From Escherichia phage vB_EcoS_HdSG1: 63,595 nucleotides of DNA. Made by a program: the position numbers and the translations under genes. The notes under the pieces are model-generated. The model was not told the origin of the DNA. It did no database searches and saw nothing but the letters and a program-made list of their open reading frames with translations. Shown here in pieces: positions 27,681 to 29,750 of this stretch (its first letter is position 1; the number at the start of each line of letters is the position of its first letter). The DNA lies in the sequence record MK373795.1; one strand, written 5' to 3'.

Positions 27681-29750
27681 ATGGCAATTCATTTACATGG
27701 TATTTTAGTTGATGGATTGAATAAACCAATCGTCAATGCAAACGTCTTCTTACTTGCACGAAGCAATACTATTGTAGTTCTAGGTGGAAGTAAAGCGGTA
27801 TTTAAGACCGATTCACAAGGTGCTTACGACGTCACAGTGAACACCGGGCATTATGTGGTTATCATTGGACCAGAAGGTAAGGAACCGTATAAAGCTGGTG
27901 ACATTGTAATCTATGCAGATAGCCAAAATGGTTCACTTAACGCATATCTTACTAAATGGGCTCCAGAAGAAACCACACCTGAAATACTTCAGGAAATAAA
28001 GCAACTGGTGGCTAACTCTGAGCAATTTGCATTGCAGGCGTCTGAATCCGCTGCTAATGCTAAGAAGAGTGAGCTTAACGCGGAGACAAGTAAAAACTCT
28101 GCTGCAACGGATGCAGCTTCAGCTCTGCTGTCAAAACAGGAATCTGCTGCTAGTGCATCTTCCGCATTGCAATCCAAGAACGCCGCGGCTGGTTCTGCTA
28201 CATCAGCTCAACAAGCTCTTACTGCTGTGCAAGGACTCAAGGCTGAAGTCCAGCAATTAAAAACCGACACGCAGCATATTAAAGAAGAGGGCGTCGCTGA
28301 AGTAACAGCTCTCAAAAATGCTGCAACTACTGCGGCTAACAATGCTAAAGCATCAGAAACTGCATCTGCTAATAATGCGACTTTGGCTGATACTAAAGCA
28401 AAGGAAGCGTCCGCAAGTGCAACCACTGCTAATCAAGCGAAGGTAGCTGCTGAGGCAGCAAAGGCCGCATCCGAAGCAAGTGCAGTTGATTCTGCTACTT
28501 CTGCTGGTAAATCACAAACCGCAGCTAATGCAGCTAAGGCAAGCGAGACGGTTGCAACACAGAAGGCAGCTTCGGCGTCTACGTCTGAAACTAATGCGGC
28601 AGCATCCGCTCAGACTGCAATCGATAAAGCTGGTGAGTCTGCTGCTAGTGCTACCGCAGCTAAAGCGAGCGAAACTAACGCTAAAACGTCAGAAACTAAT
28701 GCTGGTACATCAGCTGGAAGATCTGAGTCTGCTGCCTTGCGCTCAGAAGCTGCTGCTGAACGTGCGGAAGAGATTGCTAATGCAATTGGTCTTGAAGACG
28801 CATCCTTAACTACTAAAGGTATCGTTCGCCTTAGCAATGATACTAACAGCACCGCCGAGAACCTGGCAGCTACACCGAAAGCTGTTAAAACAGTCATGGA
28901 CGTTGCTAACACTAAAGCTCCGTCAAATAGTCCTGTTCTAACTGGTGTACCAACGGCACCAACTCCAGCACCTGAAGTTAATAACAATCAGATTGCCACA
29001 ACTCAGTTTGTACACCAAATTATAAGCGCACTGATTGGTGATGCACCAGACGCATTAAACACGCTCAAAGAGTTAGCTGACGCTCTTGGTGATGATCCGA
29101 ACTTTGCAACAAAGATAACCACACTTATTAACAGTAAGTTGGCTAAAGATCAGAACGGTGCTGACATTCCTAATAAGCAACTGTTCATTGATAACATTGG
29201 TTTACGCGAGACTGTTAACTTAGCTCTCGGTGCATTGCAGAAGAATCAGAACGGTGCGGATATCCCCGACAAGGGCCGCTTCCTGAATAACATTAATGTT
29301 TACAGCAAAGGTGAAGTGGATAAGAAAAAGGGGATGCGAAAATACACTTTCTCCGCTCCTGCAAATGCAGTAAGCGGTAAGTGGTATCCTATAGTCTTTC
29401 GCCGATCTGGAGGCAGTACCGATGAATTAGCCTCACGAGTTGTGATAACTACTGGTTCCTCAGTTGGCGGATACGCCATGAATAATTGTGAATTTAATGG
29501 GTTTGTTATGCCTGGCGGTTGGTCTGATCGCGGTTCATATGCGGCTGGTTTTTTCTCAATATATTCTACTGCTGAGCGAGCTATACACTCGATTATTTCA
29601 AGTGTGAAAGATGACGATTTGTGTAGTGTATTTTACGTTGAAGCCAGAGCATTCCCTATCAAGATATTTGCTGAGGAGGGCTTGAACGTAATTGTTCCAA
29701 CCGCTGATTATGCAGTTGGTCAAACCACTTATAAGTGGGGGGGCAACTGA
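27681..29750 (+). CDS. side tail fibre protein, proximal part
   Basis: 689 aa; long Ala/Ser/Thr-rich low-complexity coiled region; ends 7 nt after a G7 run with the fibre continuing in the +1 frame. Confidence 0.65.

Follow-up and report, generated by a model that had tools for sequence, protein, structure and literature searches.

An extra G divides the side tail fiber gene of Escherichia phage vB_EcoS_HdSG1: a loss-of-fiber mutation or a sequencing artifact?

Two neighboring open reading frames (ORFs) in the genome of Escherichia phage vB_EcoS_HdSG1 are, with high confidence, a single side tail fiber gene (stf) that has been interrupted by a non-programmed +1 G slippage insertion in a run of seven Gs. 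The two tail-assembly ORFs that follow are also the halves of one protein, Tfa, cut by a second frameshift. We favor, at a probability of roughly 55%, the explanation that the extra G is a genuine loss-of-fiber mutation like that of lambda PaPa, acquired or tolerated on Escherichia coli K12.

Results

The stretch of DNA analyzed (the window, 63,595 bp) is an exact sequence match to Escherichia phage vB_EcoS_HdSG1 (GenBank MK373795), a 9g-like Nonagvirus of the Queuovirinae described by Korf et al. 2019 (PMC6563267). In Nonagvirus DNA, some of the Gs are expected to be deoxyarchaeosine, a 7-deazaguanine. In the GenBank annotation, the fiber halves are already deposited as two proteins: HdSG1_00041, a 'hypothetical protein' of 689 aa (QBQ81046.1) identical to the product of the proximal ORF, and HdSG1_00042, a 'putative tail collar domain protein' of 562 aa (QBQ81047.1) that matches the distal ORF read from the ATG at 29710. 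An exact-protein look-up returned no 689-aa or 562-aa product outside the HdSG1 record, and the split is not mentioned in PMC6563267. The features of the region are collected in Table 1.

Table 1 Features of the stf-tfa region of HdSG1 (positions in the window).
Feature	Position	Strand	Remarks
gpJ-like central tail fiber / host specificity gene	24130..27258	+	1042 aa; intact; upstream of stf
Proximal part of stf	27681..29750	+	689 aa; ends ...TYKWGGN*; tail-attachment domain and Ala/Ser-rich shaft
Mosaic module across the break	29236..30016	+	94-97.6% identity to E. coli prophage/phage-plasmid fiber genes
Distal part of the same fiber gene, +1 frame	29692..31398	+	Repeats, Collar, T4 gp37-type His-rich needle tip
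G7 run	29737..29743	+	1-nt insertion relative to the G6 (TGG GGG GCA) of all close homologues
N-terminal piece of tfa	31398..31691	+	97 aa; cut off by the second frameshift
tfa frameshift site	31673..31692	+	Window GGATCTCTCTTCCGGATAAT; in-frame GGATCTCTTCCGGATAAT (HdK1) or GGATCTCTCCCGGATAAT (9g)
C-terminal piece of tfa, other frame	31718..31978	+	86 aa; Caudo_TAP PF02413 positions 43-131; phrog_105 positions 119-203

A sequence-only reading of this region had placed the stop of the 689-aa ORF 7 nt past the G run and had found the +1 frame to be open from 29692. Both positions were correct, the stop being the TGA at 29748..29750 (AAG TGG GGG GGC AAC TGA) and the +1 frame continuing to the end given in Table 1. 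When one G is set aside, the window reads ACT TAT AAG TGG GGG G GCA ACT GAT CCT, where JenK1, 9g, and PD328 have ACT TAC AAA TGG GGT GCT ACA GAC CCT, coding for TYKWGATDP. Deletion of one G recreates exactly this peptide, as it stands in frame in 9g, JenK1, and HdK1, which bears out the proposal that a single side tail fiber gene, split at the G run, underlies both ORFs. It had also been claimed that either a single insertion or a single deletion of a G would fuse the ORFs. This holds for the deletion (G6), which gives a single fiber of 1238 aa, but not for the insertion, as G8, like G5, runs into a stop near codon 700 without any fusion. The addition of two Gs (G9) also joins the frames and gives 1239 aa. 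The G7 run is the only G run longer than five and the longest G/C run in the HdSG1 genome, and a G/C run of at least seven is unremarkable for this composition, being present in 81% of Markov-1 simulations. The element that is not expected by chance is that the deletion of exactly one G restores a peptide conserved in dozens of homologues.

The proximal ORF starts with PF08400 (phage_tail_N, residues 1-131, E=1e-22) and contains PF03406 at residues 375-415 (both Pfam), and residues 1-91 of the fiber match PDB 9e7m, 'Tail fiber protein'. The distal ORF contains three fiber repeats, the Collar domain, and the tip; the sequence-only reading had already placed distal fiber repeats and the tip in this frame. 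Collar (PF07484, Pfam) was found at residues 992-1039 of the one-G-deleted fiber, and the tip matches PDB 2XGF (T4 gp37) with E=1e-66. The fused protein is thus ordered as a lambda-Stf-type N-terminus, an Ala/Ser-rich shaft, repeats, Collar, and a gp37-like needle. On the PHROG 295 profile, the first ORF covers positions 1-539 and the second positions 433-794, which is the pattern that a fiber cut in two should give. The order of genes, namely a gpJ-like gene, a small reverse gene, stf, and tfa, is that of HdK1, JenK1, 9g, and PD328. The locus therefore carries both the PF08400 N-terminus and the J-stf-tfa order of an stf-type gene, with the collar and the gp37-like tip in the same polypeptide only once one G is removed and in a separate frame as written. 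The +1-frame ORF encodes 568 aa from the TTG at 29692 or 562 aa from the ATG at 29710; its genuine coding sequence starts at the G run, and 29692..29736 is the proximal part read out of frame. All 568 codons are open, with no secondary decay downstream of the break.

We then compared the junction with its other copies. JenK1, 9g, and PD328 each possess one intact fiber CDS (1205-1220 aa) at the same locus and in the same synteny, with 87-95% DNA identity to HdSG1 over the proximal 1.7 kb and over the distal 1 kb plus tfa. In HdSG1, the middle module has been swapped for a prophage/phage-plasmid allele, which is the source of the G6 run. This module shows only ~67% identity to the other Nonagvirus fibers, which have GGGGTG (TGG GGT GCT) at the site and no such run, whereas it aligns over 728-781 nt with E. 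coli prophages and 100-120-kb phage-plasmids with one gap only, the extra G. Five E. coli prophage/phage-plasmid fiber genes with 98% identity over 29680-29800 have G6 and a single long ORF, and a P2-like phage fiber gene also has G6.

The 91-nt junction was found in 62 complete E. coli genomes; all 60 copies listed were 1 nt shorter than the window, and no 100% match to the window junction was present among these 60 of the 62. G6 was likewise found in every contig carrying the junction in IMG/VR (6/6) and in metagenomes (2/2). At the protein level, a search space of 5.8 billion clusters was used and the best 120 representatives were examined: 43 contain the YKWG motif, all of which continue as YKWGAT[DN]P, and none of the 120 has a KWGGN ending or a shifted tail. 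A pattern scan of genome_contigs for the junction returned nothing. A 570-aa cluster mate (P0002), considered as a second split copy, was uninformative, its contig ending before the junction. G7 is unique to the HdSG1 record, and the other copies found all have G6 and a continuous ORF. The junction set was built from E. coli homologues; a frame-switch scan with 9g and JenK1 misses the stf break, because both are too divergent there.

The tfa lesion is a TC duplication (+2 nt), HdSG1 reading GGATCTCTCTTCCGG versus GGATCTCTTCCGG in HdK1 and GGATCTCTCCCGG in 9g. Intact Tfa homologues (9g, PD328, and several Logan contigs) are 192 aa long and read ...ITTIGSLPDNVTYIAPDG, and the protein is in one piece in 125 of the 127 phage records with this Tfa. 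The only other split tfa is that of JenK1, isolated on K-12 MG1655, where a different change (-1 nt) affects the same spot; the slippage-prone TC/C site has been hit independently in JenK1 and HdSG1.

The two lesions could reflect mutations in the phage or errors in its record, and the second explanation, although the less probable one, is a serious contender. According to it, the real phage has G6, an intact 1238-aa fiber, and perhaps an intact tfa, so that the true DNA would be G6 and/or GGATCTCTTCC at the tfa site. The extra G would have entered the consensus as a homopolymer error, which the 7-deazaguanine modification of Gs may have made worse. The phages of the study were sequenced by PacBio RSII (HGAP3) or Illumina MiSeq, the platform being unstated per phage, and the paper and its supplements give no per-phage platform, host range, electron microscopy, or proteomics for HdSG1 (PMC6563267). 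The coverage of HdSG1 (88x) is the lowest among the study's siphoviruses. G7 is the single most error-prone site, as it is the longest G/C run in a DNA whose Gs are expected to be partly deoxyarchaeosine, and an error there would also fit the G6 of all the natural copies found. The lack of decay downstream fits an artifact as well as a very recent mutation. A priori, so few passages would hardly suffice to fix a second, neutral lesion, except in the case that the tfa lesion predates them.

The sister phage HdK1 (MK373794), from the same laboratory and paper, shows what such errors look like. Its fragmented genes include those for the major capsid, the tape measure, and the primase/helicase, and compared to JenK1 it has 45 one-nucleotide indels, mostly insertions, of which G insertions are the commonest class (16/45). 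Several dinucleotide insertions, such as TC, are also present, so that its indels include the classes of both HdSG1 lesions. As in HdSG1, one-base G insertions beside Gs split genes in this long-read-type error pattern. However, the breaks of HdK1 number in the dozens and include essential genes, while HdSG1 has none outside stf-tfa.

This difference was borne out over the whole HdSG1 genome. Neither a DNA comparison with JenK1 nor a tblastn frame-switch scan with the JenK1 and 9g ORFs revealed another conserved gene that is broken. Indels of non-triplet length occur otherwise between genes, in the terminal repeat, or in divergent stretches, where they are compensated, unlike the further indels spread regardless of coding that an assembly error would leave. 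Among coding homopolymers of at least 5 nt, 117 of 118 have the same length as in JenK1, the exception being the stf run, whereas 4 of the 37 unique non-coding homopolymers of at least 5 nt differ (Fisher p=0.012). Length differences therefore shun coding DNA, which fits real differences filtered by selection and is unlike random sequencing error. Moreover, the one frameshift besides that of stf affects tfa, its functional partner: for two lesions placed at random, the chance that both hit the 4.3-kb stf-tfa module is p=0.005, or ~0.07 when the G7 error is presupposed. The terminal repeats (1..3363 and 60233..63595) were considered as an internal gauge of error; they tell nothing on its rate, because the copies are 100% identical and were probably duplicated from one another. 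Between the frameshift and the sequencing error that the sequence-only reading had offered for the G run, the picture from the whole genome speaks somewhat more for a genuine mutation.

Discussion

We infer that the extra G is present in the DNA and not merely in the assembly. HdSG1 was isolated on the laboratory strain DSM 498 and passaged in soft agar from single plaques four times or more (PMC6563267), and DSM 498 is an E. coli K12. Compared to its intact relatives, the fiber gene differs at the break by a single small indel (+1 G, one gap), and the literature describes both a host on which such fibers are dispensable and selection in plaques. In such small siphoviruses, the lateral fibers presumably attach to O-antigen or another primary receptor, and rough K-12 can be infected without them. 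In lambda, Stf+ phages are strongly counter-selected in top agar, and among 21 large-plaque escapees, 19 had a mutated stf; 15 of these mutations were frameshifts, located with a single exception at short homonucleotide runs (PMC2762979).

The loss-of-fiber mutation could have arisen from G6 to G7 by replication slippage, a classical type of frameshift, here in a lambda-Stf-type lateral fiber gene. G7 would then have been fixed or enriched during plaque purification and growth on DSM 498, where the lateral fibers may be dispensable and, in soft agar, even disadvantageous; selection on K12 would in that case be the cause of G7. The 689-aa product would keep the attachment domain and the shaft and lose the receptor-binding tip, and the distal 560 codons, having no proper start, would be translated at most weakly. 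The virion would lack working lateral fibers and would probably infect through the central J fiber and the RBP module. With tfa carrying its own slippage frameshift, the entire stf-tfa module would be off.

Three further readings keep the extra G in the DNA and give it a function, or give the fiber two pieces; even taken together, they are unlikely. Phase variation, one of the options of the sequence-only reading, found no support here and is on its own very unlikely. It would make the G run a contingency tract, with fibers ON at G6 and OFF at G7, by which the phage could hedge fast adsorption against free diffusion or spread its bets over host types. Campylobacter phages are reported to have hypermutable polyG tracts, in which, as in HdSG1, a G homopolymer in a receptor-binding gene sets the production of the full protein. 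Homopolymer slippage can in principle run backwards, and the loss of one G from G7 gives back exactly the wild-type protein; the side fibers of lambda also carry a fitness trade-off (PMC2762979). However, the tract of HdSG1 is short, seven Gs being few for a high-rate switch, and its length does not vary among close copies, as the ~70 natural copies found are all constant at G6. The other Nonagvirus fibers have no run at the site at all, and the return of the fiber would also need a reversion in tfa.

An extension of this idea, in which the G run brought in by the prophage module exchange and the TC/C site of tfa would form a joint reversible ON/OFF switch of the lateral fibers, is less likely still. 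If true, a virulent phage would be hedging fast adsorption against free diffusion, or smooth against rough hosts.

The least likely reading is that both halves are used as they stand, either through programmed recoding, where +1 shifting of the ribosome or slippage during transcription on GGG_GGG_G would yield some full-length fiber, or as a separately translated distal half that docks onto the proximal one. The tRNA-Gly on GGG could re-pair perfectly one base on and give ...KWGATDP, and a G-rich, Shine-Dalgarno-like stretch with a UGA two codons later loosely resembles the arrangement of the prfB-type +1 frameshift. Programmed frameshifting was nevertheless rejected: the A-site codon GGC is common and the spacing to the stop is unlike that of prfB, the RNA after the site folds no more stably than its shuffled versions (z=-0.21), the frameshift region has no Rfam match, the tfa site has no X_XXY_YYZ slippery heptamer, and the break interrupts a peptide motif that is otherwise conserved without a gap, with the homologues in frame and the frameshift configuration conserved in none. 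Some phages assemble lateral fibers from two proteins, and a GAGGAGG lies 12 nt before the TTG at 29692, but an independent start of the distal half is not credible, as this spacing is marginal to poor, the ATG at 29710 has no purine-rich Shine-Dalgarno before it, in agreement with the earlier remark that it has no convincing ribosome-binding site, and the first 15 codons of the ORF are merely conserved proximal sequence out of frame.

Whether mutation or artifact, the event is of a known and ordinary kind and brings no new biology. HdSG1_00041 and HdSG1_00042 should be annotated as the halves of one side tail fiber. Should the lesions be real, HdSG1 from the DSMZ would be a fiber-less laboratory variant whose host range would understate that of the phage in the wild, and infection or adsorption could change in a G6 revertant or in a repaired construct. 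Should they be artifacts, the MK373795 record needs correcting. The practical upshot is an annotation correction and caution on the host range of the stock.

The sequence-only reading had likened the split to that of laboratory lambda, and the comparison is apt: lambda PaPa has no side fibers owing to an stf frameshift (Hendrix & Duda 1992, as cited in PMC12617516). In lambda PaPa (orf401/orf314), compared to Ur-lambda, as in HdSG1, the stf gene between J and tfa is split by a single-nucleotide indel. The lambda fiber is dispensable on K-12, and the stf indels selected during plaque and soft-agar growth lie at homonucleotide runs (Gallet, Shao & Wang 2009). HdSG1 differs in being a virulent Nonagvirus with 7-deazaguanine DNA, in the position of the lesion within the gene, and in that its lesion is known from the record only. 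Its chaperone gene tfa is frameshifted as well, whereas that of lambda PaPa is not known to be. The two fibers nevertheless have a common PF08400 N-terminal family and a T4 gp37-related tip. Since the HdSG1 fiber and lambda Stf share this gp37-like type of tip, it is plausible, by analogy, that the HdSG1 fiber could bind K-12 surface structures and slow the diffusion of the phage.

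The exchanged fibre module and the adjoining chaperone gene

The middle module of the side tail fibre gene shares 94-97.6% identity with its counterparts in E. coli prophages and in phage-plasmids of ~100-120 kb but only ~67% with the fibres of other Nonagvirus phages, while the flanks of the module are still Nonagvirus-like. The middle of the HdSG1 fibre has thus been swapped, which is evidence that a virulent phage and temperate elements recombined recently. A few complete genomes of E. coli, the D97-1 chromosome among them, list the homologous prophage fibre solely as a 398-aa "gp53-like domain-containing protein" or carry no annotation for it, suggesting that the prophage fibre genes of these few assemblies are broken, at sites other than the G run.

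The tail fibre assembly chaperone gene (tfa), directly downstream, is divided by a duplication into ORFs of 97 aa and 86 aa, where intact homologues encode 192 aa. The tfa of the related phage JenK1 is disrupted at the identical site by another change (−1 nt), so the distal half lies in the −1 frame in both phages. No slippery heptamer was found at the break site. That one site is hit in both phages could reflect a mutational hotspot at TCTCTCCC; alternatively, growth on K-12 could have selected for loss.

Table: Coordinates of the features considered, in the HdSG1 window or, for HdK1, in record MK373794.
Feature	Sequence	Coordinates	Detail
Mid-fibre module	window	29236..30016	
Flanks of the module	window	27681..~29230 and 30625..31978	
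tfa, split	window	31398..31978	break at 31673..31692; TC duplication (+2 nt)
G-rich stretch and UGA	window	29733..29750	
Frame differences relative to 9g	window	48288..49074 and 56872..57118	
Direct terminal repeat, two copies	window	1..3363 and 60233..63595	
HdK1 split-gene examples	record	13013..14130, 19499..22761 and 54694..57260	
HdK1 fibre, split	record	28196	GG to GGG insertion

Frame differences and assembly quality

Two stretches of the window are in a different frame from their counterparts in phage 9g: the last 26 aa, at the C-terminus, of the AAA ATPase homologue, and the second half of the small homologue of 9g_00026. Because JenK1 matches the window at both places, these are differences or errors in 9g and not lesions of HdSG1. 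The two copies of the direct terminal repeat (3,363 bp) are 100% identical; the published description gives a length of 3,362 bp (PMC6563267).

In the record of the sister phage HdK1, which was published in the same paper as HdSG1, the genes for the major capsid protein, the tape measure protein (three pieces), the primase/helicase (four pieces) and the lysin, among others, are in pieces, and the fibre gene is likewise split. Against JenK1, 45 one-nucleotide indels were counted, among which insertions and G predominate. The HdK1 record has the look of a long-read assembly that was left unpolished, and it is in need of correction.

Comparison with the prfB frameshift site

At the HdSG1 fibre junction, the extra G creates UGG GGG GGC AAC UGA, a G-rich, Shine-Dalgarno-like stretch with a UGA two codons further on, which loosely resembles the +1 frameshift site of prfB. 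We judged this resemblance coincidental, since the arrangement is absent from all homologues and differs from what a prfB-like site would require in both its spacing and its P-site codon.
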